A DNA stretch of 64,000 bases from Escherichia coli (GCF_003790525.1 NZ_CP033635.1), one strand, 5' to 3'. Numbered from the stretch's first letter, positions 4,071-33,177 are shown. Notes: generated by a model from the letters alone, not told the origin. Translations and numbers: made by a program.

Positions 4071-4074
4071 TCTT

Positions 4075-4109
4075 CAGCCCGACGAACTGTTTCGCCGGGC
4101 TGATTTTTA
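4075..4109. terminator. Hairpin between convergent perM and focB, likely bidirectional terminator
   Basis: cagcccg...cgggctg 7-bp stem followed by ATTTTTA on the plus strand; overlaps the focB stop codon. Confidence 0.5.
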
Positions 4110-4955
4110 GGGTTCCTGACGTAAATAAATAGCCCGATAACAAATACTCACCAGCACTGCACCGCCGATAATATTACCCAGCATCACCGGGAGCAGATTG
4201 GCGGTAATAAAATGGCTGACCGTCAGTGCCGGAAAATGGTCTGCGCTACTGTGCGCCAGTTGCCAGAAGGAGGTAGGGGCGAAATGGCGAATGGCAATGG
4301 CGAACGGAATCACAAACAAATTGGCGATACAGTGCTCAAAACCACTGGCGACAAACAGGGTGATGGGCAAAATCATGGCGACGATTTTGTCGCATAACGA
4401 ACGTCCGCAATAACTCATCCACAGCGCCAGGCAAACCATCACATTGCACATAATGCCGAGGCTGACTGATTCAGTAAATGTATGATGCATTTTGCCCTCG
4501 GCGCAGTGTAAAACCGCGACTCCCCACATCGCGTTTTCACTCATCACCAGCCCGGAAAACCAAATTAACAAACTGAAACAGGCAATACCTGCCAGATTAC
4601 CGCAGGCCACCAGAAGTGCATTAATCAGCCATGTTCGCCAGCTAATAACGCCCCGACTTTTTGCCATCACCGTCATTACCGACGAGGTGAACAGGCTGGT
4701 GCCGCAAACCGCCAGCAAAATAAAGCCGAGCGTAAAGCAAAGGCCTCCCACCAGATGGGTTAATGCCTGTGAAGACGGGGCATCGGCGATAACGGTAAGG
4801 TAAAAAGTAAATCCGATCGCCATAAACACGCCTGCGGACATCGCCATTAAAAAGACCGACACTTTGCTGCGGGCAATTTTATGGGCGGCAATCCGTTCAG
4901 CGATTGCCGCTTTTCTGGCGCTCAACTGCAAGTCGAAAGAGAGTTTGTTTCTCAT
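4107..4955 (-). CDS. focB: Formate channel (FNT family), last gene of the hyf operon
   Basis: 282-aa membrane ORF, 21 bp downstream of hyfR on the same strand. Confidence 0.9.
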   Translation of the reverse strand: MRNKLSFDLQLSARKAAIAERIAAHKIARSKVSVFLMAMSAGVFMAIGFTFYLTVIADAPSSQALTHLVGGLCFTLGFILLAVCGTSLFTSSVMTVMAKSRGVISWRTWLINALLVACGNLAGIACFSLLIWFSGLVMSENAMWGVAVLHCAEGKMHHTFTESVSLGIMCNVMVCLALWMSYCGRSLCDKIVAMILPITLFVASGFEHCIANLFVIPFAIAIRHFAPTSFWQLAHSSADHFPALTVSHFITANLLPVMLGNIIGGAVLVSICYRAIYLRQEP

Positions 4956-4976
4956 GAATACTCCTGCAAAAGCAGA

Positions 4977-6989
4977 TTACAACACCTCGCGAACCGAGAT
5001 CCCCAGACGCTGCATTCGTGACAGCAGCGTGGTGCGCTTCATCCCTAATCGTGTCGCCGCGCCACGGGGCCCGGCAACAATGCCATTGGTTTCTCGCAAT
5101 ACCTGAACAATGCGCTGACGTTCTTCTTCGTCATTCTCTGGCGTCGTCGGGTGCAGCAACTGCGCCATTGAACTGCGAAGCGCTGAATCTTCATTTAGCG
5201 TCGGCAGTAAACGGCTTTGTCGGACATTAAGATGTAAATTCAGACTGTTACCGCGAGTCAGTAGTACCGCTCGCTCAATCACGTTTTCCAGCTCGCGCAC
5301 GTTGCCCGGCCAGTCCCACGACATCAACTGGCGTAGCGCCTCGGTCGGGATGGCGTCAATTGCGCGATTCATATGGCGCGCCATTTTTTGCGTGAAATGC
5401 TTTGCTAAAAGAGGGATATCTTCCGGACGGTCGCGCAGTGGCGGCAGTTCCAGTGGGAAGACATTCAGGCGATAAAAGAGATCGCTGCGAAACTGGCGAT
5501 CTTCAACCATTTGCCACAAATCACGGTTGGTGGCGGCAATGACTCTGACATTTACCGGGATCGTTCTACTCCCGCCGAGACGCTCAATCTCCCGTTCCTG
5601 CAATACGCGCAGCAGTTTAGGCTGAAGTTCTAACGGCAGATCGCCAATTTCATCGAGAAACAACGTGCCGCCATCGGCAATTTCAAAACGACCACGATGG
5701 GTATTAATCGCACCAGTAAATGCCCCTTTGTCATGACCGAATAACTCACTTTCCAGAAGACTGGCGGGGATGGCAGCGCAGTTGATTTTGACCAGTGGCT
5801 TGTCGCGTCGTGGGCTAAGTTGATGGATCGCTCTGGCGATCACCTCTTTGCCGGTTCCGGTTTCACCACAAATCAACACCGTACTGTCGCTCTTCGCCAC
5901 AATATCTACCTGCTGGAGCAGGTCTTCCATTGCCTGGCTTTGATAGATAATGTCACCGACGCCCAGATTCGAAAGGAGCTGCTCGCTAAGCTGGTGGTTT
6001 TCTTGCTGCAAGCTTTCCTGCAAATCGGTCATGCTGCGCCAGGCATCGGCATTGCCAACGGCAATAGCGATGCGATCGGCAATATGTTGTAGTAGCTGGC
6101 AGTTTTCCTCACTAAAGAGAGTGGAAGAGGTATGCGCCAGCAACAATGCACCCGGTGTATGGTTGCCAAAGGTGAGCGGTATAAGGAGCGCAGATTCGCA
6201 GCCGTTAGATGCAAGTAAGTGTAATAACGGGTCGCGTTGCCAGAGAAACAGATCGTCTGCACGGTGCGTCAAGGTCGGTTGTCGGGTTTGTAGCGTTTGT
6301 GTCAGCAATACACTGTCGCCAGCCATATTGCGTGGCAGACACGCACAATGTGAGGCAGAAAGATCGCTGCACCACAGGCTGAACTTCTCGTTCTTTCGAT
6401 GATCGCCCAGTACCATACTGACTGAAGCCAGACCGAAAAAATGATGGATCTCACGAGCGACGTCAGCGATCAGATTGTCGAGATCAAGATGTGACAACAC
6501 TGCATTAGTGATATCCACCAGTACCCGATGATGATCGCGATCTTTCTCCAGCAAACGCAGCGCCACCTGCTGTTCTTCATCATTGAGCCATGATTGCAGA
6601 ACCGGAGTGATTATGTGTGCCAGCCAGTTAAACAGTGTGCAATCCTGGGGAGTAAAACGACTGCCGTGGGTGCGAATAAAGCGTAGCTCCGCCATTCCAC
6701 TACTGCCGAGAAGGACGGCGTGGCGCGAATAATCGACCATCTCACCCTGATACTTTGTTGTTGCCGTCACATCGCTGCCATCATCATGGTAGCGGTAATA
6801 GAAGTTGCTTTTGAGAACATGCAGTTCAATAAGTTGTACCGGGCTGAACGGCGGCGGCAGCGGGATGAAGGCGCGTAATAAAGACGCCTTGCCGTGTTTC
6901 TGCGCTAACCGCTCCGCGAGCATTCCGTTTACCGCTTCAATTGTTATTCCTTGCGGCGGGGCAAACATCGCCTCGTCTGACATAGCCAT
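4977..6989 (-). CDS. hyfR: Sigma54-dependent transcriptional activator of the hyf operon (FhlA-like enhancer-binding protein)
   Basis: AAA+ sigma54-interaction domain (GETGTGKE Walker A; GAFTGA motif as ...[10 protein letters not shown]...) and C-terminal HTH; track ORF begins with TTG at 6992, the ATG at 6989 matches MAMSDE. Confidence 0.9.
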
Positions 6990-7018
6990 CAACAGTCCTT
7001 ATTAATGAGAAATCCTTC

Positions 7019-7432
7019 TCACGCAATTTTTCTGGCCATCAGATAGATGGCCGGTTCCTGCACAATTTCATCCAACAGATGAATGAATTGAATGCTACGC
7101 GCCTGCCACGCCGACGTCGCGTCATCTGCCAGTGGCGCGAATGCCCGGGTCAACAGGGCGGTGTGGCTGGCGTCAATAACAATCTCACCAAAAGTCATCA
7201 CCCCCAGCATCTTACGTCGGGCTTGCTCCTCTTCGACCAGTGCAAGCCAATCTTCGTATTCCGTCAGTGGGCAGCGGAAGGCGACATTCAGACAATCAAT
7301 CACGCCAACGTGATGGCCGATAGCTAGCGAGTAATACATTACCTGAGAGCTGTGTTCCGGCATCTCGTCGCTACTGGCGACAAACTTTTTTCGCAGCGTC
7401 CAGAAAACAATTTCCCCGCACTCTTCAGTCAT
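7019..7432 (-). CDS. hyfJ: Hydrogenase-4 maturation/assembly protein (HycH homolog)
   Basis: Track ORF 7019-7495 (158 aa); the internal ATG at 7432 gives the 137-aa protein [11 protein letters not shown]... immediately after the hyfI stop. Confidence 0.85.
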
Positions 7433-8183
7433 GTAACCCCCGGAGTACGCGAAAGAGTTGCTGAACGATACTATTGAGACGTGGATCGTCGGCATCGCGC
7501 AACCAGGTGTTAACCCGATTTCCTGTAGGATCGTCGCTTAAATGGCGCAGGAGTCGATCGCAAATTTCTCGCCCTTGACGATAGCCCGCCAGCCGCCTCG
7601 CTTCTCGCTCAATGGCGATACGCTGTGATGGCGGGATCTGCGGCCACAGCGGTTGCATGGTCACCCCGGTGGGATCGCGATAATCCACCGCGTGAATCTT
7701 CTGTTGCAGCAAACCGAGCGCCACGGCGAAACCGTGAATGGTGGCGGCCGGTGTTGGCGGGCAGCCGGGGATCCAAACATCAATGGGGACAATGGTGTCG
7801 CTGCCGCCCCAGACGCTGTAAAGATCGTGGAAAATACCGCCGCCGACACCGCACGCGCCGTAGGAAACACAAATTTTATGATCGGGGGCAGACTCATATG
7901 CCCGAAGTGCAGGCATACGCATCGCACGGGTGACTGCGCCAGTAAATAACAAAATATCGGCGTGACGCGGTGATGAAACAACCTTAATGCCAAAACGTTC
8001 TGCGTCGAATACGGGTGTGATGGCGGCAAAAATTTCGATTTCGCAGGCGTTACAGCCGCCGCAATCGACGCGATAAACGTAAGCCGAGCGACGGATATCC
8101 TGTAGCAAATGCTGCTTCATCTTTTGCGTTTGCTCGTCCAGCGTAATGGGCTGGCTGACATGTTGCGTAAGCACTGGACTCAT
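7425..8183 (-). CDS. hyfI: Hydrogenase-4 small subunit (NuoB-like, [4Fe-4S])
   Basis: 252-aa ORF with NuoB-type cysteine motifs ([10 protein letters not shown], ...GCPP); overlaps hyfH and hyfJ. Confidence 0.9.
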
Positions 8184-8725
8184 AGCTGCTCCTTAGCCAC
8201 CAGCGGTTCATTTGTGTCGTCGTTGATCAGCGTCGCGCGTTGTTTGCATTCCGGGCAGACGCTCGCTTGCGCCCGTAACATTTCGCGGTTTTGTGGTGCA
8301 TTTTGTTGCTGTGCCAACAGTTCTGCAGCCAGTGCGACGGTTTTTTGCGGGGCAAACGGGCGTTCGCAACGGCTGCAACGTTGTAGATGGAACGTCGCGC
8401 GGGTATAGAGATCGGCTTTATTGGTGACGGTCAGTTCAAAGTTATTGGTAAGCTGAATGGCTCTGGTCGGGCACACTTCTTCACAACGTCCGCAGTAAAT
8501 ACAACGCCCCAGATAGAGCTGCCAGGTGCGCGTATTTTGCTGGTCGTCGGTCTGGATAGTCAGCGCATTTGCCGGACAAGCACAGGCGCAGGCACCGCAG
8601 GCAATACATTGGCTGGGCATCAGGTCCGGTTTCCCGCGAAAGCCTGGGCTGACCTCCAGTGGCGCGAAGGGATACTTCACCGTCGCGGTTCCGGCGCGCA
8701 TAATAGTTTTCAGTAACTTCAGCAT
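8180..8725 (-). CDS. hyfH: Hydrogenase-4 ferredoxin-like subunit (2x[4Fe-4S])
   Basis: 181-aa ORF with two CxxCxxCxxxCP motifs. Confidence 0.9.
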
Positions 8726-8734
8726 TTTCTGTCC

Positions 8735-10450
8735 TTACTTCAGCGGCGAACGGTTACGATCAATGCCGTAGCGTTCGATCTCTTTATACGGCACGGTTTT
8801 TGACTGGCGCTTGCGCACATCAACCAGCGTCACACGGTCGGTACAGGAGTAACAGGGATCAAGGCTACCGATAATCAGCGGTGCGTCAGAAACGGTATTG
8901 CCGCGCAGCATGTAACGCAGCACTGGCCAGTTGGCGTAGGTGGCGGCACGACAGCGCCAGCGGAACAATTTTTGGTTATCACCGAGCATGCTCCAGTGCA
9001 CGTCTTCACCGCGTGGCGCTTCAACAAAGCCCAGCGCGAATGCGTGAGGTTTATAGCTAAAGCCTTCGGTCAGCAGTGGGGTATCCGGCATGTTGTCGAG
9101 GGCAAATTCCAGCATTGCCAGCGAATCAAACGTCTCTTTGACACGGACCATCACGCGGGAGAAGACATCGCCGCCGGTAAAGGTAAACAGCGTTTTGGGA
9201 ATATTACCGTAGTCGGCGTAGGGGTGATCAAAGCGCAAATCACGGGCAAAACCACTGCCGCGGATCAGCGGCCCGACAGGGCTATAATCACGGGCGATTT
9301 GTCGGTCGAGAATGCCAATGCCCTGAGTGCGTTGTTCCATATTCGGCGTGGCAAGCAGCATCTCTACCAGCTCCGACACGTCGGCGCGCATCTCGCGCAC
9401 CAGTTTCAGCGTTTGCAGACGTTGCTCTTTGAGAATATCGCGGCGAACACCACCAATCAGATTCAGACCGTAGGTTTTACGCGACCCGGTCAGCAATTCC
9501 GCCATCGTCATCGACTTTTCCCGCACGCGGAAAAATTGCATAAAGCCGGTATCAAAACCAACAAAATGGCAGGAGAGGCCAAGGTTGAGCAAATGACTAT
9601 GCAGCCGTTCGACTTCCAGCAGAATCGAGCGAATAGTATGCGCTCGTTGCGGCACCTCAATCCCCAGTGCATTTTCAACCGAGTTGGTATAGGCCACACT
9701 GTGGGCAAAACCGCAAATCCCACACACGCGGTCGGATAAGAAGGTCACTTCGTTGTAGCCCATCCGCGTTTCTGCCAGTTTCTCCATGCCGCGATGGACA
9801 TAAAACAGGCGGTAATCAGCATCGACAATTTGCTCGCCATCCACAAACAAGCGGAAGTGACCTGGTTCATCGGAGGTGATATGCAGCGGGCCGACAGGGA
9901 TCACCCGCGCATCGCTGTTGCCCTCGTTGATAAACGGATACGTTTCGGTATCAGTCGTCGGTTCTGGGCGCAGTCGATAATCCATCGCGTCTTTGCGCAG
10001 CGGATGCATATCTTCCGGCCAGTCATCGGGCAACACCAGCCGACGCTGATCCGGCAGGCCAACCGGAATCAGCCCGTACATATCGCGAATTTCTCGCTCG
10101 CCCCAGACCGCGGCAGGGACGCGCGGTGTGACTGACGGAAACTCCCGACTGTCGGCATCGACCAGTGCCTTCACCACGATCCAGCATTTTTCGGCCCCTT
10201 CCATAGAAAGGGCATAATAAACCGCGTAATGACCGTTAAGTGTCCGCTCGTCGTTGCCAAACAGGACTGGAAGCCAGCCATCATGTTGATAATAAAGATA
10301 ATGCACAACGTCAGGCAGCAGATTGATTTTCACCGTAATGGTGACCTGTTCAGGCGTTTGTCGCTCTTCATCCAGCACCGCGCCGGGGAACTGCGTTTTC
10401 AGGGCGGCGAGAATCGCTTCGCCACGATTTGACGATGAATTAACGTTCAC
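8735..10450 (-). CDS. hyfG: Hydrogenase-4 large catalytic subunit (NiFe, HycE/NuoCD-like)
   Basis: Track ORF 8735-10495; the likely start is the GTG at 10450 ([11 protein letters not shown]) with GGAGA upstream, overlapping the hyfF stop. C-terminal DPCxxC NiFe-binding motif present (DPCYSCTDR). Confidence 0.85.
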
Positions 10451-12020
10451 TGTGTTTCTCCGAAACAGATGCGGTGCCTGAAGGCAAAAAATCATGCCAG
10501 GTGCTACGTTGTGCAGGCAGGTCGTGCGTCCCTGAGAGGACTATAGTGGAAGCGCCCGCCAGGATCCTGATGACAGGTTGTGGAATATGCGTTCCCATCG
10601 CCAGCATCATGACCAGCAGAATCACCATTGGCGAGGTGGTCAACCAGCCAAGTTCACCCCGGTTAACGGCCTGCGGCGGTTTCGCCATTAACACCCGCGC
10701 AGCCATCCGTACCAGGCCCGCCAGCACCAGCGTTAACAGCAATAACAGCAGGACGATAAGCAGCAGATGATTACGCGCCAGCCCTGCGGTAACGGTCATA
10801 AATTCGCTAAGAAAAATGTTGAAGGGCGGCATCCCGGCCAGCGCCAGCGCACCGCCGCCAAACAGCACGGCGGTAAATGGCATGATTTTGAGCATTCCGC
10901 AGACGACGTTGAGATCGCGCGTGCCGTACTTGAGCAGTACATTGCCGGAACCGCAGAACAGCAGCGTTTTTGCCAGACTGTGGTTTAAGGTGTGCAGCAG
11001 CGCGGCAAAAATTCCCAGCGGCCCGCCAATGCCTAACGCCACCGCGACCAGTCCCATGTTCTCCACGCTGGAGTACGCCAGCAGACGCTTAATGTCCCGC
11101 TGTACCAGAATGAAAAATGCCGCCACGGCAACCGACAACATGCCGAAGATGAGCAACAACCGGTTGGGGAAATCGCTGCCGATGGCCTGGCAAATAATGA
11201 TGTAATAGCGAATCAGCACCAACAGCGCGCAGTTCAGCAATACGGCGGAGAGCAGGGCGCTGACCGGACTCGGCGCTTCACTGTGAGCATCTGGCAGCCA
11301 GGCGTGCATGGGGAATAGCCCGGTTTTAGTGCCAAAGCCAATTAGCACAAACACAAAGGCCAACAGCATTAATGTTGGGTCAAGCAAGGACGATTGCTTA
11401 AGAACCTCGCTCCAGAATATCGCCATTTCTGCCTGCGGCATAACGCTGGCGGCGTTGGCGTATACCAGCACGGTACCGAACAGACCAAAAGCGACACCAA
11501 CAGTACAAATAATGATGTACTTCCATGCAGCTTCCAGCGATGAACGCTGACCGTAAATGCCTACCAGAAACGCCGAGCTTAAGGTGGTGGCTTCGATCGC
11601 CGCCCACATCACAATCAGGTTATTGCTGGTAACAACCAGCAGCATGGTGAACAAAAACAGATGGAAGAAACCGTAGTAATCGCACAGCGTAACGGGTGAA
11701 AGCTCGCCGTGCTCCACTTCATGACGCATGTAGCCAATCGAGTAAACACCGGTGAGAAAGCCAATCACACCAAGAATGGCGAGGAACAAACCGCCCAGAC
11801 CATCAATATGAAGCCACAGTCCCGCAGCGAATATTTCTCCCGCATCAGCGGCTGTTTGGACCACCCAGAGTGCCAGAATCAGCAGCAGTGTGATCCCTAA
11901 GCTATGTAATACTGTCACCGCGCGAGTCGGAGAGTGCCCCCGTTTCCGGCAGGCAAAACAGAGCAGCGAAAAAAGCAGCGGCGTGAGCAGGAGTAAAGCG
12001 AACATCACAGAATAACTCAT
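10440..12020 (-). CDS. hyfF: Hydrogenase-4 membrane subunit (NuoL/M/N antiporter-like)
   Basis: 526-aa polytopic membrane ORF in hyf order. Confidence 0.9.
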
Positions 12021-12024
12021 CTCA

Positions 12025-12675
12025 TTATCCCTTCAGCGCGGTCAAGTTGTTCACGTTCAGCGTGCCGTGGGTACGCCATATTTTTCTTGCCAGTAACACC
12101 ATCACAATGACGGCGAAGATGGCGTCGGTAGCGATACCAATTTCCACCAGTTCCGGTGCACGCCAGGCAAGAAGCGCCAGCACCAGATGGGAGCCGTTTT
12201 CCATCAGGCAGTAACCAAAAATTTGCCGCAGGATATTGCGCTGGCTGACAATGCACAGCAGGCCAAGCAGAAAATGACCTAACGCCACCGCCAGCGCCGG
12301 TTTCAGCCCGGTAGCCATCGGTAGCTTCACGGGCTGAACGACAAATGCGCAAAGCAGGACAATTAACGCCGCGAGCAGTGTCATCATTGCCGGACCGAAT
12401 AACGCTTTTTCCGGGAGGTTCTGGGGAATATTTCGTGCAGCGTAAGTCATGATTAACGGTACCAGCAGCACTTTGGTGATAAAGGCGCTGGCGGACCAGA
12501 TCAGCAGTTGCTCTGCGGCGAACAGGCACGAGAGAGTGGCGAAAATAGACACCAGCACCAGCGACTGGCAGGCGTAAAATCCGCATGACAGGCGATAGCT
12601 TTTGACACTAATCACAAACAGCGATGTCAGCATCATCAGTCCCGCCAGATTATTTACGATCATAGAACCGGTCAT
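12025..12675 (-). CDS. hyfE: Hydrogenase-4 membrane subunit
   Basis: 216-aa hydrophobic ORF between hyfD and hyfF. Confidence 0.85.
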
Positions 12676-12686
12676 TCATCATCTCC

Positions 12687-14126
12687 TTACTGCAACCAGG
12701 TCGCGGCGATTACGCTGGAAATCAGCGACATCACAATCAGTACAATCAACACCAGGCGCATTGATCCTGGCAGCGGTGCGGCATCGGCGACGGCCTCGCT
12801 CGGTTTGCCAGGCACGACGCGACCAAACCAGCGAATAAACCAGGCGAAACTGGCGACCGATTCAATCATCAGCAGAATCATGGCGGGCAGCAGGATCCAG
12901 TACTCCACTGACAACGAAAAACCGGCAGCAAACAGCGGGAATTTACTGAAGAAGCCGTTGAACGGCGGTACGCCAGTAATCGCCAGCGCGGCTACGCAGA
13001 AACCCACGCCTGGCAACGGCAGGGTGTGCAATACGCCACGCAGACGCGGCAACAAGCGCGTGCCGCAGCTGTAACTCAGCGCACCTGCTACAAGGAAAAA
13101 CAGGCTTTTAGCGAACGCGTGGTTGACGATGTAGGCGATGCTGCCCTCCAGCGACAGCCGCGAGCCGAAGATGGAGAGCGACAAGCCGAAAAACATCCAG
13201 CCAAGTTGAGTGATGGTCGACCAGGCCAGCAACCGCTTCATATCCTGCTGTGGCAAATACATCAGGAAGCCGTAAAGAATGGTGACCAGTGCCATAACCA
13301 TGCCAACGCCGCCAATCACATGCGGGATATTGCCGCCGTCGATAATGGCACGGGCAAAAATGTAAACGCCCACTTTCACCATCGATGCGGCGTGGAGATA
13401 GGCGCTGATCGGTGTTGGCGCTTCCATTGCATCCGGTAGCCACGCTTGCATCGGTAGCTGGGCCGATTTCCCCCACGCGGCAAACAGAATGCCGCCATAA
13501 ACCAGATAACGTGCGTCGCCGTGTAACTCGCTCATCGCGCTAAGCGCAAACGTTCCGGTCTGCAAAAACAGCGTGGCGGCGGCAAGATACAACCCCAGCG
13601 AACCGATATGAGTGATAAGTAACGCTTTTAGTGCTGAACGCTGCGCTTTATCGCTCTGGTAATAACTGATCAACGCCCAGGAGCAGCCGCCCGTAATTTC
13701 AAAAAACAACAACTGACCGAGCAGCGTTGAGGAGAGTACCAGTCCCGCCATCGCGCCGATAAACACCAGCAAAAATGCGTAATAACGATTCGTGCCGTTA
13801 TGCGGGTGTTCGCGATTTTTATCCGTCAGATAACCCGTGGAGTAGATCGTGACCAGCAAACCGAGGAACACCACCACAAACAGAATCAGCGTACTCACGC
13901 GATCAATGACCAGGCCAAACAACGCCACATCCCCCACGTTGACCAACGTCAACGTGACGGCAACTTTATCGGCCTGATAAAACGCGGAGATCAGCGACAA
14001 CATGCACAGCGTGGTCAGCGCGGCGAACAAAATCCCCCATTCGGCGGCCCGACGTTGTGGCGAAAACGAAACGACCAGTGCGCCGATAAAAGGCAGCAAT
14101 AACGTCGTCAGAGCAAGATTTTCCAT
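12687..14126 (-). CDS. hyfD: Hydrogenase-4 membrane subunit (NuoL/M-like)
   Basis: 479-aa polytopic membrane ORF. Confidence 0.9.
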   Translation of the reverse strand: MENLALTTLLLPFIGALVVSFSPQRRAAEWGILFAALTTLCMLSLISAFYQADKVAVTLTLVNVGDVALFGLVIDRVSTLILFVVVFLGLLVTIYSTGYLTDKNREHPHNGTNRYYAFLLVFIGAMAGLVLSSTLLGQLLFFEITGGCSWALISYYQSDKAQRSALKALLITHIGSLGLYLAAATLFLQTGTFALSAMSELHGDARYLVYGGILFAAWGKSAQLPMQAWLPDAMEAPTPISAYLHAASMVKVGVYIFARAIIDGGNIPHVIGGVGMVMALVTILYGFLMYLPQQDMKRLLAWSTITQLGWMFFGLSLSIFGSRLSLEGSIAYIVNHAFAKSLFFLVAGALSYSCGTRLLPRLRGVLHTLPLPGVGFCVAALAITGVPPFNGFFSKFPLFAAGFSLSVEYWILLPAMILLMIESVASFAWFIRWFGRVVPGKPSEAVADAAPLPGSMRLVLIVLIVMSLISSVIAATWLQ

Positions 14127-14142
14127 ATTCCGTCAGTGCTCC

Positions 14143-15090
14143 TTACAGACCGGTTAACCAGAAGACCCAGGCAAGCGCAGCAAGGCTGAAGCCAAGCCAG
14201 GTCACATGGTGAATGAGTAAAAAACGCCCGCGTGCCAGCGTGTTTTCTGCGATAGAGGCCAGAACAAAAATCAGCAAAACCTTGAGCAGCGTAACGACAA
14301 GTGAAGTCAGCAGGCAGGTGAGAGAAAGCTCTTGCGCGCGCCCAAAGGGCAGAAACAGGGCCACAAACAGTGATGCCATCACGACCTGTTTCAGCCCCAG
14401 CCCCAACTTCGCCAGCGCCAGCCCGGCACCGGAATATTCGGTCAGCGGGCCTTCCTGTAATTCCTGTTCTGCTTCAGCAACATCAAAGGGAATTTTTCCC
14501 ATCTCAATGAAGCAGGCAAAACCACAGGCCAGTAACGCCAGTACGGTGGTTAGCGGCGAGTTCCAGCCCGTCGCCAGCGTCTTGCTGATCATCTCGATAT
14601 GCGTGGAATCCGCTATCAGCGCCAATACCAGCAGTGAGAGAATGAGCATGGGTTCGACCAGAATGCCGAGCGTTAACTCGCGACTGGCACCGATTCCCGC
14701 AAAGGGGCTTCCGGTATCCAGCCCGGAAAGAGCAAAGAAAAAACGAAATAGGGCAAGAAGATAGATAAGGGTGATCAGATCGCCGCCGCCCGCAAAAGGG
14801 GAAACAGTAATAAATAGTGGTAGGGCCATCGCCAGCACCAGCATGCTGCTGATTAATACCCACGGCATCAGGCGGAACATCAGACCTGAAGATGTCGGCG
14901 CAACTTCCTGGCGTTTAAACAGTTTGTGGATATCGCGATAATCCTGCCAGATCCCCGGTCCGCGACGGGAGTGCATACGCGCGCGTATCTGCCGGGAAAT
15001 CCCCGTAAAAAGCGGGGTTAGCGCCAGCAGAATCACGGCCTGTGCTAACGCAAAAATGATCAGATATCCGTCGCAAAGAGTTTGTCTCAT
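14143..15090 (-). CDS. hyfC: Hydrogenase-4 membrane subunit (NuoH/HycD-like)
   Basis: Track ORF starts with TTG at 15111 and overlaps hyfB; the ATG at 15090 (MRQTLCDGY) lies downstream of the hyfB stop with AAGGAAA upstream and gives 315 aa. Confidence 0.85.
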   Translation of the reverse strand: MRQTLCDGYLIIFALAQAVILLALTPLFTGISRQIRARMHSRRGPGIWQDYRDIHKLFKRQEVAPTSSGLMFRLMPWVLISSMLVLAMALPLFITVSPFAGGGDLITLIYLLALFRFFFALSGLDTGSPFAGIGASRELTLGILVEPMLILSLLVLALIADSTHIEMISKTLATGWNSPLTTVLALLACGFACFIEMGKIPFDVAEAEQELQEGPLTEYSGAGLALAKLGLGLKQVVMASLFVALFLPFGRAQELSLTCLLTSLVVTLLKVLLIFVLASIAENTLARGRFLLIHHVTWLGFSLAALAWVFWLTGL

Positions 15091-15100
15091 GGTGATTTCC

Positions 15101-17119
15101 TTAGACGGCAATAGCGATTAGCAGCACAACCAGTGCGGCGACCACATACAGGCAATAGAGACGAAAGTCGCCGCTTTGCAGATGCTGTATTTCTTTGGCC
15201 AGCCGTTGGGTGGCGCTCACGATGGGGCGGATCACCCGCTCATCCCAGAAGGGTTCTGTGCTCTGAGCCCTGGCGGTGACGTGCGCAAGACCTTTGTTCA
15301 GCCTCAGCGTAGGGTCGAGCTGTTGTCGTAGACGAAATAGCGCACAAAAGACCACACGCAGCGGCTGCATCACGCCATTGCCTGACGGGGCCATCGCATT
15401 ATCCCAGCCGTAGCCGCATGCCCAGGCATCTCCTGTGCGACGAAACGCTGCGCGGCGCGAACGACACCACAGCCAGTAAAGGCCAGGCAGCAAAGGCATC
15501 GCCAGTAGTAACAGCAACAGTAATGAGGGAGTGACCCGTGTATGAAACGTGCCGGGTACAAGTGCTATTCCGCTGGCGACAGTGACGGGAGGGGTATTGG
15601 TAAACGCATGGGCAATGTGCATTATCTTCGGTGCCAGCCAACTGGCACTAAGCGCAATGAATACGCAGAGTGCCGCGAGCAGTAGCATGGCGACGATCAT
15701 CGTATTTGGCACGTCCTGTGCCTCTTCAGCGTGTGTACTGCGCGGCGCACCACAGAAAGTAATGCCGTACATTTTGACGAAGCACATTACTGCCAGCCCA
15801 CCAGTGACTGCCAGCATCACCATAGCAATAGGACCCGCAAGTTGTAGCGCTACGGCTTCCACACGACTTAGTGAGAACAGCGACTGCCAGGTGTACCATT
15901 CGCTGATAAAACCATTCAGCGGAGGAATGGCTGATATCGCGAGGCAACCAATCAGGCATGCTGCGGCTGTCCACGGCATCCGTTTTGCCAGTGCCCCCAT
16001 TTTTTCCATGTCGTGGGTATGCAAACGCGAAATAATCGCACCCGCGCCGAGAAATAGCAGCCCTTTGAACAGCGCATGGTTGAGCAGATGAAACAGTGCG
16101 CCGAGCAGTCCAACCATGGTGAGCAGCGGGTCGTGCAGTGACAGACCGACCATGGACACACCGACCGCCAGCAAAATAATGCCGACGTTTTCGACGGTAC
16201 TCCAGGCCAGCAGCCGTTTGATATCCTGTTCCGCCAGCGCATACAGCACGCCCAGGAGCGCGGAGATTGCGCCGATCGCCATCACCAGAATGCCCCACCA
16301 CAGCGGCAAACCCGTTTGCGCCAGCAGATCCATCGCCACTTTCAGGATGCCGAAAATACCGATTTTGACCATTACGCCAGACATCAACGCCGAAGCGTGC
16401 GATGGTGCGGCAGGGTGAGCGCGCGGCAACCAGCTGTGCAACGGCATCATCCCGGCTTTCGCGCCAAAACCGAAGAAGGCCAGCAGGAACACCGCCGACG
16501 CCAGCCCCGGAGAAAGTGAAAGCGTGCGGAAACTGGCAAAATCGAGGCTGCCGCTTTCGCGCCCCATCAGCAAGAAGGCGATCATAATCAGCACCGATCC
16601 GGCGTGGGCGATAAAAACGTAGAGCATGCCAGCGTTGATTGACGTTTTATCCTGCCTGGCAATGACCAGAAACCAGGAAGACAGCGACATCATTTCAAAC
16701 AGCACGATGAACCAAAAAGCGTTATCCATCACCAGCAGGGCAACCATCGAGGCGATGAAAAGATTCATAAAGAAGCCCATCGCCGCCGCGCCTTTGCCCT
16801 CGTATTCGCGCATATAAGTCAATGAATAGAGCGAACAAACCACCACCAGCAAGGAGATAACCAGCACCATAAATGCCGAGAGGCTATCCATTCGCAGGGT
16901 TAAATCGGCAAAGTCAAAAGGCGTGGCAAAACGGGCGACTAAAGTTACGCCTGCATGTAATTGCGTAATTCCGCTGATGATGCCAATCACGCCGCCCACC
17001 AGCGATGTGATGCCGGAAAGCTTAATAGCCAGTCTGTCCAGACCGAGTAAAAACAGCGAAGCCAGACTGGCAAACAGATAGAGGATCAGCGACCAGGTTA
17101 ATAATTGCAGGGCATCCAT
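15101..17119 (-). CDS. hyfB: Hydrogenase-4 membrane subunit (NuoL-like proton-pumping subunit)
   Basis: 672-aa polytopic membrane ORF; start overlaps the hyfA stop. Confidence 0.9.
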   Translation of the reverse strand: MDALQLLTWSLILYLFASLASLFLLGLDRLAIKLSGITSLVGGVIGIISGITQLHAGVTLVARFATPFDFADLTLRMDSLSAFMVLVISLLVVVCSLYSLTYMREYEGKGAAAMGFFMNLFIASMVALLVMDNAFWFIVLFEMMSLSSWFLVIARQDKTSINAGMLYVFIAHAGSVLIMIAFLLMGRESGSLDFASFRTLSLSPGLASAVFLLAFFGFGAKAGMMPLHSWLPRAHPAAPSHASALMSGVMVKIGIFGILKVAMDLLAQTGLPLWWGILVMAIGAISALLGVLYALAEQDIKRLLAWSTVENVGIILLAVGVSMVGLSLHDPLLTMVGLLGALFHLLNHALFKGLLFLGAGAIISRLHTHDMEKMGALAKRMPWTAAACLIGCLAISAIPPLNGFISEWYTWQSLFSLSRVEAVALQLAGPIAMVMLAVTGGLAVMCFVKMYGITFCGAPRSTHAEEAQDVPNTMIVAMLLLAALCVFIALSASWLAPKIMHIAHAFTNTPPVTVASGIALVPGTFHTRVTPSLLLLLLLAMPLLPGLYWLWCRSRRAAFRRTGDAWACGYGWDNAMAPSGNGVMQPLRVVFCALFRLRQQLDPTLRLNKGLAHVTARAQSTEPFWDERVIRPIVSATQRLAKEIQHLQSGDFRLYCLYVVAALVVLLIAIAV

Positions 17120-17736
17120 TAGCGTTGCTCCTGAGTGAGGGAAAGGGGATCCTCCCCGCCATTGGCAAACCAGCTTGCGGCAAGGCGCTGTTTTTCTTTC
17201 ATCTGACGTTGCAGTCTATCGTCGGTGATCAGCCGTAACGCCTGATTCGGACAAGCGCGAACGCAGGCCGGACCTTCTGGCAAGAAATCACACAGGTCGC
17301 ATTTCACCGCGACGGTCTGGACACCCGGTTCCCAGCGCAGCAAAGCATGTTGGGTCGACACGTTTTCTTCGCCGTCTTTGAGTGAGCCCTCAGCCTGAAA
17401 AACATATTGCGCAGGGGCATTCACCGGACGGCTTCCTGAAGCGCTGATTGCGCCAAATGGGCAGACCACGGCGCAAAGCTTGCAACCAATACAAAGGCTT
17501 TCGTTGAGTTGGATCGCATCATCCCTCTGGGAGATGGCATTGACCGGGCAGACCTGCAGGCAAGGGGCTTCCTCACAGTGATGACACACGACAGGGGCAG
17601 TGAGTGTTGACGTCTTCGCCAGGGCCAGGCGCGGGTGTTGCTGTAAACCTTGCGTTTTATGCACGTCCGAACAGGCAGCGAGACAGGTATTACATCCTGT
17701 ACACCACAGTGGTTCGGCCACCACAAAGCGGTTCAT
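17119..17736 (-). CDS. hyfA: Hydrogenase-4 electron-transfer subunit (4x[4Fe-4S] ferredoxin, HycB-like)
   Basis: Track ORF 17119-17775; the ATG at 17736 (MNRFVVAEPLWCTGCNTC) is preceded by AGGAG; multiple CxxCxxCxxxCP motifs. Confidence 0.9.
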   Translation of the reverse strand: MNRFVVAEPLWCTGCNTCLAACSDVHKTQGLQQHPRLALAKTSTLTAPVVCHHCEEAPCLQVCPVNAISQRDDAIQLNESLCIGCKLCAVVCPFGAISASGSRPVNAPAQYVFQAEGSLKDGEENVSTQHALLRWEPGVQTVAVKCDLCDFLPEGPACVRACPNQALRLITDDRLQRQMKEKQRLAASWFANGGEDPLSLTQEQR

Positions 17737-17777
17737 GTCGGCTCCTTGAAAATGATATGAAACATTGCATTTCATAT

Positions 17778-17793
17778 TGCATAAAGAATGCCA
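17778..17793 (-). promoter_or_regulatory. Sigma54 (-24/-12) promoter of the hyf operon
   Basis: Minus strand reads TGGCATTCTTTATGCA (GG-N10-GC spacing, consensus TGGCAC-N5-TTGCA) about 40 nt upstream of the hyfA ATG; hyfR encodes the matching sigma54 activator. Confidence 0.6.
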
Positions 17794-17888
17794 GTCTGAT
17801 TAATTTAATATATTCAATAAGTTATGAATTAACTGTATTCTGAACGGTACAAAAATGATGGTCATTAACGTTCAGCAATAAATGGATT

Positions 17889-17933
17889 CGACACCCGTGT
17901 CGCAGGGGAAAGCGAGAATGTGATCTTGATCAC
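17889..17933. promoter_or_regulatory. Candidate upstream activator sequences for the hyf sigma54 promoter (two inverted repeats)
   Basis: CGACAC-CC-GTGTCG (17889-17902) and GTGATC-TT-GATCAC (17920-17933) lie about 100-150 bp upstream of the -24/-12 element, the usual position for enhancer-binding-protein sites. Confidence 0.35.
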
Positions 17934-17988
17934 GAGAAGTGAGGTGTGCTGGCCGCAAGCACAGCCAGCACGGAATGGAGCAAAGTAA

Positions 17989-18459
17989 TCAGGCGTGTTC
18001 TTTCAGCCAGTTCAGCACAACGTCGTGGTGATTGCTGGTTTTGAAATCGTCAAAGACATGTTCGATTTTGCCATCAGCGTCAATCAGGAAGCTGATGCGA
18101 TGAATACCATCGTAGGTTTTGCCCATGAAGGACTTTTCACCCCAGACGCCGAATTGTTCGCACACCTGGTGGTCCTCATCAGACAGGAGCGTAAAGTTAA
18201 GCAGCTCTTTTTCCGCAAAACGGGAGAGTTTTTCGGGTTTATCGGTGCTGATACCCAGCACATCGACGCCCGCTTTTTTCAACTCATCCATGTTATCGCG
18301 TAAGCCGCAGGCCTGTACGGTACAGCCGGGGGTCATGGCTTTCGGGTAGAAATAAACCAGAACACGCTGTCCCTGGAAGTCGGTCAAATTAACTTGTTCT
18401 CCGTCTTGATCCGGCAAGCTAAATTTCGGTGCGATATCACCGGCTTTCAGTGGATTCAT
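17989..18459 (-). CDS. bcp: Thiol peroxidase (peroxiredoxin, bacterioferritin comigratory protein)
   Basis: 156-aa ORF with peroxiredoxin active-site context (FYPKAMTPGCT). Confidence 0.9.
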   Translation of the reverse strand: MNPLKAGDIAPKFSLPDQDGEQVNLTDFQGQRVLVYFYPKAMTPGCTVQACGLRDNMDELKKAGVDVLGISTDKPEKLSRFAEKELLNFTLLSDEDHQVCEQFGVWGEKSFMGKTYDGIHRISFLIDADGKIEHVFDDFKTSNHHDVVLNWLKEHA

Positions 18460-31476: not shown

Positions 31477-33177
31477 TTACATCAGCTGACTTTCCTCACC
31501 CTCCGCAGAGCGAAAGCTAATACTCACTAACGTGCCGCCGCCGGAAGGTTGCGAAAAAGTCAGCGTCCCACCCAATCTTTCCGCGCGTTCGCGCATGATA
31601 TTCAGACCATAATGGCCTTCGGGTTCTTTCGGTTCACCGATGCCAATCCCGTTGTCGCGAATATAGACTGTGTGATTGCCATCCGGCGCGGTGACGCAGC
31701 TAACGGCGATTTCGCTGGCGTTGGCGTGCTTCATCGCATTCAGCACCGCTTCGCGAATAATTTGCAACAAATGCACCTGCATTTGCGCATCCAGCGCCAG
31801 GGTTGGCAGACGGCAGTCGAGGGTCAGTTTGGCGCTGGTTTGATTTTGTAACGTATCCAGCATTTCCCTCAACGCGGAGGGGAGATCCGCCTGCTGCAGC
31901 GTCAGGCGGAAAGTAGTTAACAGCTCGCGTAACTGCCGATAAGCATCATTCAACGCCTGGGAAAAATCGGCCATGATACTTTGTGCGGTGGCATTATCTT
32001 CCGGTATCGAACGCTTCAGTAACGTCAACTGGATACGTAAGTAAGAAAGTACCTGAGCCAGCGAGTCGTGCAATTCGCGGGCGATGGTCGCACGTTCTTC
32101 CATCAACAATAACTGCTGAAAATGCTTCTGCGCCTGATTAAAGTACAAACCGCGTCCCAGCATCGACGAAACGCTGTTAAGCAGCGGTTCTGATGATGAA
32201 ACGTGACTATTTTGCCAGTGCAGTTCGCCGTAAACCGTCTCTTGCATTGTCACCGGTAAAATCTGCATCGGCAATTCCGGGTTTGGCTGCCCTTCGCTAA
32301 TCCGCCAGTTGTCACCGACATTTAACTCCAGATATTCAGCCGCTTCATTGTCGCGAACAATCTGCAAAATATGGCGGAAACAATGCACATCAATCTGGCT
32401 GGTGTTTAGCGCCTGCGAACACTGATACAACACCTCCAGACGACGCTTGGCCTCGTGGAGATCGCGGGTCTTTTCTTCTACTGACGCCTCCAGCGAACGG
32501 TACAATTTATGCAGCTCGCTCGACATCTGGTTAAAGGTTTTTGCAAGCAGGCCAAGCTCATTCGGCAGGCTGGTATCCAGCGGCGGCGAGTCGAACTGCC
32601 CGTGTTCAATACGCTGACTGGCGGTAACCAGCTGATTCAGCGGGGCAACCACCTGATGGCGTATGCGGCGCAAAGTAAAAAAGACCAGCGTGAAAATACC
32701 GATGCCGCCAGCCAGGGAAATCGCCACCACCAGCAGCATTTTGCGTTCAGCGTAGTGCTGTAAAGCCAGCACGAACAGGTCTATCTGATTAACATAATTA
32801 TTAATATTGGCCTGATACCACGGCAAGTCGCCCTTGCTGAGCCGATTATTCATCTCCAGCCAGTTGGCATTCAGATGCGCATAGCGGGTTTTTACTGCCT
32901 CTGGCACATACCAGACGTTGAGATTGGTTAATACCGGTGAATGCAGTGCCTGCTGAAATAACTGGCGATGTGCATTGAGTTGTGGACTGCCACTTTGCAA
33001 ATCGTAGCCCAGGCGGTAACTCTGCATACGCAGCGATCCGGCAATATTGATAGCCTCAGCGTCGCGCAAACTGCTCGCCAGAGTTAGCAGAGCGATACCC
33101 GTGGAAAGAATCGACAGCAGCACAATGTAAAAAAAGGCCCGGGCCAGACTGGCCGAGACGGGTCGTTTAACAATCAC
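31477..33177 (-). CDS. narQ: Nitrate/nitrite sensor histidine kinase
   Basis: Track ORF 31477-33192; the recalled N-terminus MIVKRPVSASLARAFFYIVLL corresponds to the GTG at 33177 with GGAGAA RBS (566 aa); HAMP and HisKA_3 (ELHDSLAQ) regions present. Confidence 0.9.
   Translation of the reverse strand: MIVKRPVSASLARAFFYIVLLSILSTGIALLTLASSLRDAEAINIAGSLRMQSYRLGYDLQSGSPQLNAHRQLFQQALHSPVLTNLNVWYVPEAVKTRYAHLNANWLEMNNRLSKGDLPWYQANINNYVNQIDLFVLALQHYAERKMLLVVAISLAGGIGIFTLVFFTLRRIRHQVVAPLNQLVTASQRIEHGQFDSPPLDTSLPNELGLLAKTFNQMSSELHKLYRSLEASVEEKTRDLHEAKRRLEVLYQCSQALNTSQIDVHCFRHILQIVRDNEAAEYLELNVGDNWRISEGQPNPELPMQILPVTMQETVYGELHWQNSHVSSSEPLLNSVSSMLGRGLYFNQAQKHFQQLLLMEERATIARELHDSLAQVLSYLRIQLTLLKRSIPEDNATAQSIMADFSQALNDAYRQLRELLTTFRLTLQQADLPSALREMLDTLQNQTSAKLTLDCRLPTLALDAQMQVHLLQIIREAVLNAMKHANASEIAVSCVTAPDGNHTVYIRDNGIGIGEPKEPEGHYGLNIMRERAERLGGTLTFSQPSGGGTLVSISFRSAEGEESQLM

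Follow-up and report, generated by a model that had tools for sequence, protein, structure and literature searches.

The -24/-12 element upstream of hyfA in Escherichia coli: evidence for a sigma-54 promoter, its conservation and its variation among strains

Introduction

Does the GG-N10-GC motif that precedes hyfA on the minus strand of the DNA studied here serve as a sigma-54 promoter of the hydrogenase-4 operon, and which activator would open it? The window, i.e. the whole stretch of 64,000 nucleotides that was analysed, had been described in an earlier note made from the sequence. That note had placed a -24/-12 element in front of hyfA and had proposed that the operon's own activator is encoded at its 3' end. 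According to the analysis presented here, the element is almost certainly hyfAp, the sigma-54 (RpoN)-dependent promoter of the E. coli hydrogenase-4/formate hydrogenlyase-2 operon. This promoter is already known and is textbook biology. For the window itself little is at stake, as a textbook regulatory element is confirmed; mildly new are only the candidate palindromic upstream activator sequence (UAS) found across genera and a probable promoter-dead allele in O157:H7. Throughout, a functional promoter is understood as one that is competent and inducible, not necessarily one that is active in wild-type cultures.

Results and Discussion

Location of the element in the hyf locus

The window stems from E. 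coli. A 501-nt query spanning the site matched 5,424 of 5,426 complete E. coli genomes, at least over its bcp part, and the same query was 100% identical to strain SC516. Between positions 1600 and 34100, the window differs from SC516 by four mismatches and no indels over 32.5 kb; the RefSeq annotation of this strain was therefore transferred directly. The resulting gene order, which lies entirely on the minus strand of the window, is bcp > hyfABCDEFGHIJ-hyfR-focB. The first gene of the operon, hyfA (17119-17736, minus strand), codes for the 205-residue 4Fe-4S ferredoxin subunit of hydrogenase-4, as assigned by the SC516 annotation, Pfam Fer4 families and HyfA homologs; its annotated ATG start codon occupies 17736-17734. 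It is followed by the structural and accessory hydrogenase-4 genes hyfB-hyfJ (7019-17119, minus strand; annotation transfer from SC516 and ORFs) and, after a gap of 29 nt, by hyfR (4977-6989, minus strand), whose Pfam domains and motifs identify the 670-residue product as a sigma-54 enhancer-binding protein. The last gene of the cluster is focB (4107-4955, minus strand), which codes for a formate channel and is recognized by the NCBIfam FocB model with 644.7 bits (cut-off 499). A terminator-like hairpin with a 13-bp stem (4074-4103, minus strand) lies directly 3' of focB and is the likely end of the transcription unit. The activator gene is thus encoded near the 3' end of the cluster, as had been claimed, with focB behind it.

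On the minus strand, positions 17793-17778 read TGGCATTCTTTATGCA, which is exactly the string given in the earlier note; the 17-mer CTGGCATTCTTTATGCA extends the element to 17794. The spacing had also been read correctly: GG (17792-17791) and GC (17780-17779) are exactly 10 nt apart, as in the frame TGGCAC-N5-TTGCW. It is intergenic, is located on the same strand as hyfA and lies a short distance from this gene, its 3' end being 42 nt before the ATG where about 40 nt had been estimated.

If the C of the GC dinucleotide is taken as position -12, +1 is predicted near 17767, within the putative start region TGCAA (17765-17769, minus strand), and a leader of 31 nt would precede the hyfA ATG. This length agrees with the distance of 31 that Bonocora et al. 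(2015) give for the K-12 site. The short 5' leader (17737-17764, minus strand) contains the Shine-Dalgarno sequence AAGGAG (17747-17742). The leader sequence AAGGAGCCGACATGAACCGC is kept in E. coli, E. fergusonii and Citrobacter, and one or two changes are found in Kosakonia. An Rfam search with leader and spacer yielded no meaningful family match. In primer-extension experiments, the transcription start was reportedly located 30 bp upstream of hyfA, with suitably placed -24/-12 boxes.

An in-frame ATG at 17773-17775 (minus strand), 39 nt upstream of the annotated start, would extend the reading frame to 218 residues. This codon overlaps the 3' flank of the promoter, and its use is very unlikely. 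It was rejected as the true start of hyfA because it lies upstream of the predicted +1 and is not preceded by a Shine-Dalgarno sequence, and because it is the annotated start that is conserved.

Published evidence for sigma-54 binding

At the homologous position, K-12 MG1655 carries the allele ATGGCATCCTTTATGCA, which differs in one spacer base within the 16-mer. In K-12, this site corresponds to OS23, a peak in sigma-54 ChIP-seq, which has a fold-above-threshold value of 16 and a predicted start 31 nt from hyfA (Bonocora et al. 2015). In Table 1 of the same study, OS23 is flagged "C", i.e. experimentally confirmed in EcoCyc, and cross-species scores for the hyfA site are already tabulated in its supplement. 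In a gSELEX screen, the bcp>hyfA spacer gave a 92% peak with the RpoN holoenzyme alone, and in the presence of NtrC it gave the highest (100%) peak of the whole screen (Shimada et al. 2021). The sigma-54-dependent hydrogenase-4 operon that the earlier note had proposed is thus supported by the identity of the downstream gene and by both the ChIP-seq peak and the top gSELEX peak of the K-12 site. Its remark that the architecture is known in outline is borne out and, if anything, understated.

The window and K-12 share the locus, the spacing of the element, its distance to hyfA and the core TGGCA...TGCA. The leader, the Shine-Dalgarno sequence and, further upstream, a palindrome, a CRP-like box and a block at -106 to -81 are identical. 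Over the 17-mer, the window contains a C instead of an A just 5' of TGG and a T instead of a C at base 7 of the 16-mer, i.e. in the spacer. With a matrix derived from ChIP-seq motifs (see below), the window allele scores slightly higher than the K-12 allele (16.5 versus 14.8 bits), which is a comparison of sequences only.

The upstream control region

In order to delineate further elements, the bcp-hyfA spacers of the window, K-12, E. fergusonii, C. amalonaticus and Kosakonia were aligned. The mean column identity of this footprint alignment is 72%, and conservation is concentrated in discrete islands: a TGTGA-N6-TCACA box, CGACACGGGTGTCG, GAACGTTAATGACCATCATTTTTGTA, an AA-N5-TGAA core, the -24/-12 core, and the Shine-Dalgarno sequence with the start codon. 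The positions of the -24/-12 core are invariant in Escherichia, Citrobacter and Kosakonia, whereas its flanks diverge. The islands provide a map of the hyf control region that comprises a CRP-like box, a candidate UAS, a second conserved block and an IHF-like site, and together they are compatible with a complete enhancer architecture.

The candidate upstream activator sequence of HyfR or FhlA is the palindrome CGACACGGGTGTCG (17889-17902, minus strand; centred at -128.5), which has the form CGWCA-N4-TGWCG (here CGACA-N4-TGTCG) and is the sole exact match to this pattern in the 64-kb window. Its distance lies in the range of about 80-150 bp at which a UAS is expected. The same form is found in the UAS of K-12 fdhF (CGTCAAAACTGACG) and of K-12 hydN (CGTCACTAGTGTCG). 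A published 14-bp FhlA weight matrix detected no significant match in the hyf spacer; the palindrome reached 5.6 bits, and the top score of 9.6 bits fell on the CRP-like box and is attained in 14% of random 255-nt segments. The known UAS of fdhF and hydN score only 7.5-8.6 bits with this matrix. It is the conservation of the palindrome and not matrix statistics that suggests a HyfR/FhlA site.

A candidate second activator site is the block GAACGTTAATGACCATCATTTTTGTA (17848-17873, minus strand), which spans -106 to -81 and contains the palindrome AATGA-N3-TCATT. It is the strongest conserved island of the footprint in Escherichia, Citrobacter and Kosakonia. Between the UAS and the promoter lies an IHF-like core, ATTCAATAAGTTA (17812-17824, plus strand), centred at about -51 and having one mismatch to WATCAANNNNTTR, a weak consensus. 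Its AA-N5-TGAA columns are invariant in the five bcp-hyfA intergenic sequences. IHF may bind at this core; for sigma-54 promoters, an IHF site in such a place is frequent without being obligatory. Farthest upstream is the CRP-like box CGTGATCAAGATCACA (17919-17934, minus strand; centred at -159.5), with one mismatch to TGTGA-N6-TCACA. Only three CRP-like sites of that quality occur in the whole window. E. fergusonii and Citrobacter conserve the box, Kosakonia does so in part. Expression of hyf is reportedly dependent on CRP-cAMP.

The arrangement resembles that of the FhlA-activated formate-regulon promoters hycA, hypA, fdhF and hydN. These are likewise of the -24/-12 type and have an activator site about 100-130 bp upstream that is built from TGTCG/CGACA and GTCA/TGAC words, and their activator FhlA is a paralog of HyfR with a near-identical DNA-binding helix. 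In contrast to the UAS of the formate regulon, whose spacer is A/T-rich, the hyf palindrome has a G+C-rich spacer (CGGG) and scores poorly with the FhlA matrix. The hyf system further differs in that the cluster includes a dedicated activator gene and that a CRP-like box is present.

Conservation across genera

By means of HyfA protein homologs, hyfA loci were fetched from ten other taxa, and the 400 nt upstream of each hyfA were scored with the ChIP-derived matrix. When species-representative genomes were scanned at the DNA level with WCTGCNTC, a degenerate codon pattern of HyfA, only four chance matches in unrelated bacteria were obtained; the E. coli representative may lack hyf, and the exact motif may be rare in other species. 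In all ten loci hyfB comes after hyfA, and hyfC follows in every locus for which gene calls were listed. Nine of the ten loci, namely those of Citrobacter, E. fergusonii, Kosakonia, Proteus, Hafnia, Aeromonas, Morganella, Trabulsiella and Acerihabitans, have a site of 12.5-18.1 bits on the same strand as hyfA, and the start predicted from it lies 31-56 nt before the ATG. In eight loci, the hyfA site is the best of the whole 6.6-kb locus on either strand. The bcp-hyfA arrangement is kept in three loci, and in the others the genes upstream of hyfA are unrelated or hypA lies there in divergent orientation; strong sites at the same distance are present in six loci that do not share this arrangement.

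The UAS palindrome accompanies these sites. Upstream of hyfA, an exact or one-mismatch copy occurs in all nine orthologs of the sigma-54 type, 140-210 nt before the ATG. For this pattern, which was defined post hoc from E. coli sequences, the background probability per 300 nt is about 0.004-0.0065 for exact matches and 0.04-0.08 for up to one mismatch. Thus, it can be stated quantitatively that the -24/-12 site and the CGWCA-N4-TGWCG palindrome accompany hyfA in at least nine genera.

The hyf promoter of Proteus mirabilis (PMC7658346) is a case for direct comparison. As in E. coli, a sigma-54 site (TTGGCATGAAATATGCT, 18.1 bits in the Proteus locus L010) lies upstream of hyfA, and the palindrome CGTCATAATTGTCG is located about 157 nt before the ATG. 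Activity of the P. mirabilis promoter is reported to be reduced in rpoN and in fhlA mutants. The upstream neighbour is a different gene, and the Proteus operon is actively expressed and not silent. No hyfR was seen in the Proteus stretch that was fetched.

In Trabulsiella and Acerihabitans (L015:2690-3000 and L016:2676-3000), hyfA is divergent from hypA, and the spacers contain strong sigma-54 sites on both strands, with scores of 16.7 and 15.2 bits and of 16.3 and 15.9 bits, respectively. This bidirectional layout mirrors the divergent hyc-hyp arrangement of E. coli.

A locus from the Pasteurellaceae (Bisgaard Taxon 45, L014:2618-3000) is the sole examined ortholog whose upstream region lacks both a sigma-54 site (best score -0.16 bits) and the UAS palindrome. 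Presumably, this hyfA uses a different type of promoter, and it is suspected that the Pasteurellaceae lack rpoN.

HyfR and FhlA as candidate activators

The earlier note had described HyfR as an enhancer-binding protein with the GAFTGA motif. The exact motif is present at residues 422-427 (codons 5726-5709), and the Walker A sequence GETGTGKE begins at residue 375. Pfam domains are GAF (170-312), Sigma54_activat (348-514, 251 bits), AAA_lid_14 (520-586) and HTH_8 (622-662), the latter with 21.0 bits just below the cut-off of 22. HyfR therefore has the make-up of bacterial enhancer-binding proteins of the NtrC/FhlA class, which consists of a sensory domain, an AAA+ domain and a C-terminal Fis-type helix-turn-helix.

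The best NCBIfam match of HyfR is the FhlA equivalog NF011958, which it fails with 642.6 bits versus a cut-off of 830; the match spans only residues 100-668. HyfR and K-12 FhlA are 51% identical over residues 104-664, and their helix-turn-helix motifs are identical at 30 of 38 residues. Identity of HyfR with FhlA is ruled out by the score below the equivalog cut-off and by the different N-terminus. Instead, the partial FhlA match, the overall identity and the near-identical helix-turn-helix characterize HyfR, at the level of sequence, as a paralog of FhlA that differs in its N-terminal region, and they argue that its DNA specificity is very probably the same as that of FhlA.

The following scenario is proposed for hyfAp. 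Sigma-54 RNA polymerase would bind the -24 GG and the -12 GC at 17792-17779 and wait as a closed complex, whose opening would require an AAA+ enhancer-binding protein that contacts sigma-54 by its GAFTGA loop and hydrolyses ATP. This activator would be either HyfR, whose gene belongs to the cluster, or the HyfR paralog FhlA. Its binding site would be the CGACA-N4-TGTCG palindrome, about 130 bp upstream, and probably the -106 to -81 block as well. The IHF-like site at about -51 may bend the DNA such that the activator is brought to the polymerase, and the CRP-like box at about -160 may add an input of carbon status. Transcription would start near 17767 and produce the 31-nt leader in front of hyfA. 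Which protein binds which upstream island, the roles of IHF and CRP, and the exact start in the window strain are what we infer from this arrangement.

A first alternative is that the element is a genuine promoter that serves mainly FhlA as a member of the formate regulon; HyfR would then be largely irrelevant, and the loop formed by the operon and its own activator would be idle in the wild type. This possibility is less likely than not. In its favour, the title of the primary study on the E. coli operon names both FhlA and HyfR as regulators (Skibinski et al. 2002). The helix-turn-helix motifs of HyfR and FhlA are nearly identical, and the hyf palindrome shares its form with the UAS of fdhF and hydN. 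Moreover, a chromosomal hyfR deletion is said to leave the expression of hyfA-lacZ unaffected, and RT-PCR reportedly gave no hyfJ-hyfR product, so that hyfR may not be co-transcribed from the hyfA promoter. These reports are opposed by others, according to which overexpression of HyfR induces hyf about 1000-fold and purified HyfR binds the hyf promoter region. A contribution of HyfR is also indicated by Pectobacterium, where a hyfR deletion results in very low FHL-2 activity (PMC7384014). The alternative concerns which activator acts, and not whether the element is a sigma-54 promoter.

Probable productive transcription from the element

A second alternative accepts that the site binds sigma-54 holoenzyme and assumes that this binding is not productive, hyfA transcripts coming mainly from bcp by read-through or from a sigma-70 or sigma-S promoter that has escaped recognition in the spacer. 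Many sigma-54 binding sites indeed never yield productive transcription (Bonocora et al. 2015). Furthermore, E. coli hyf is natively poorly expressed (PMC7384014) and is called a silent operon in the title of Self et al. (2004), so that firing of the promoter may be a rare event in the wild type. However, EcoCyc lists this promoter as experimentally confirmed, and the activity of the Proteus hyf reporter is rpoN-dependent.

With respect to read-through, a hairpin with an 8-bp stem, GTGCTGGC-N10-GCCAGCAC (17946-17971, minus strand), is located 18 nt past the stop codon of bcp. It has no T tract, it is conserved only in part among E. coli alleles, and the terminator scan made no terminator call for it. 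Since no canonical intrinsic terminator follows bcp, some read-through may occur. On the other hand, the -24/-12 site is kept in genera in which the upstream gene is not bcp. A separate promoter in the spacer is disfavoured as well, as no sigma-70-like promoter was found there versus 0.9 expected. Taken as a whole, non-productive binding is very improbable, and the sigma-54 promoter hyfAp is by far the best-supported start of hyfA transcription.

Chance expectation and matrix scores

How much of this assignment could be based on the string itself? The bare pattern TGGCA-N7-TGCA has three matches in the window versus 1.55 expected, and 16 of 100 shuffles reach three. Nor does the window show an enrichment of a loose consensus in which three mismatches at most are allowed (127 matches versus 141 expected). 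As neither pattern is above chance, the string alone is not significant.

A more specific test was performed with a sigma-54 weight matrix, which was built from the 134 other ChIP-seq motifs of Bonocora et al. (2015), the hyfA site being left out. In this leave-one-out setting, the hyfA site scores 16.9 bits and ranks first among the approximately 128,000 positions of the window, both strands considered. Its score exceeds those of 86-89% of the bound ChIP-seq sites, the range being set by the background model. Of the simulated windows, 34% contain a site this good at some position (the mean number per window is 0.41); by arithmetic from these simulations, the chance per given 100-nt upstream region on the correct strand is about 3e-4.

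The second matrix was the pan-bacterial RpoN matrix of Barrios as printed in PMC7658346. Here, the hyfA site scores 11.4 bits and ranks 13th in the window, its score being lowered by the T at position 7 and the A at position 12. This score is in the same range as those of the confirmed promoters hydN (10.6 bits), pspA (13.2 bits) and fdhF (13.4 bits). The rank shows that the result "best in window" depends on the choice of the matrix. The sequence evidence is therefore good but matrix-dependent, and the decisive evidence is contextual: it is the position of the site, its conservation in nine of ten other genera and its published occupancy that place it well above chance.

The remaining alternative, a functionless GG-N10-GC match that arose by chance in an A+T-rich intergenic region, could appeal to the bare-pattern count and to the frequency of equal matrix scores in simulated windows, but it is in practice refuted by ChIP-seq and gSELEX, which show the K-12 allele to be occupied by sigma-54 in vivo and in vitro, by the invariant core amid diverging flanks, and by the independent sites at the same distance in six loci, and retains hardly any probability.

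Several other positions in the window match the sigma-54 matrices. The second-best match, ACGGTACAATTTATGCA (32497-32513, plus strand), lies antisense inside narQ and is identical to the published intragenic K-12 ChIP-seq site IA19; its score is inflated because this site was in the training set of the matrix. Sense-strand sigma-54-like matches that rank high with both matrices are located inside hyfR (ATGGCGCAGTTGCTGCA, 5152-5168, minus strand, about 186 nt before the focB ATG) and inside hyfD (TTGGCATGGTTATGGCA, 13290-13306, minus strand). In the main-text tables and the examined supplements of Bonocora et al. (2015), no further sigma-54 ChIP-seq peaks are listed inside hyf; the two internal matches are therefore unsupported.

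Allelic variation within E. coli

Of 5,426 complete E. coli genomes, 4,297 contain the promoter region. The other 1,129 genomes (about 21%) lack the entire hyfA-focB cluster, the absent region corresponding to 4074-17995 of the window. In an example of such a genome (L027:4001-5300), bcp is directly followed by yfgO, i.e. the absence is clean.

Seven E. coli alleles were aligned. The palindrome, the CRP-like box, the -106 to -81 block and the -12 element are invariant in all of them. The -24 element is altered in O157:H7, where the sequence CTGACATCCTTTATGCA (L023:150-260 and L026:14501-14535, homologous to 17778-17794 of the window) contains GA instead of GG, the second G being replaced by A. 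The exact O157:H7 35-mer was found in 139 complete genomes. Among these 139, all thirty genomes listed belong to O157:H7 or the O157 lineage, including EDL933, Xuzhou21 and TW14588. At the position of the second G, 133 of the 134 ChIP-seq sites have a G and one has a T, and all 186 compiled promoters have a G; an A occurs in none. With the exchange, the allele scores 8.2 bits instead of 16.2. In EDL933, all twelve hyf genes are still intact according to the annotation.

Judged by these frequencies, the GG to GA exchange in O157:H7 would probably be a natural promoter knockout. A wider interpretation can be offered tentatively, at somewhat less than even confidence: the strength of the hyf promoter may vary naturally between E. 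coli lineages, with the window allele CTGGCATT... at the stronger-consensus end and, throughout the O157:H7 lineage, a promoter-dead allele in front of twelve intact genes, as the GA exchange would be expected to prevent sigma-54 from binding. If this were true, the GA allele and the absence of hyf in about 21% of the genomes would represent an ongoing, lineage-specific loss of hydrogenase-4 expression that starts at the promoter. The -24 mutation, which is fixed in O157:H7 and probably inactivates the promoter, bears on the question of why hydrogenase-4 is silent or dispensable in E. coli.

A different kind of change was observed in the pig isolate E. coli Res13-Lact-PEB14-36 (L020:61-256). 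Directly after the -24 TGG, this allele contains a 14-bp tandem duplication (two copies of CATCCTTTATGCAA), and its upstream copy keeps an intact -24/-12 frame that lies 14 bp further from hyfA.
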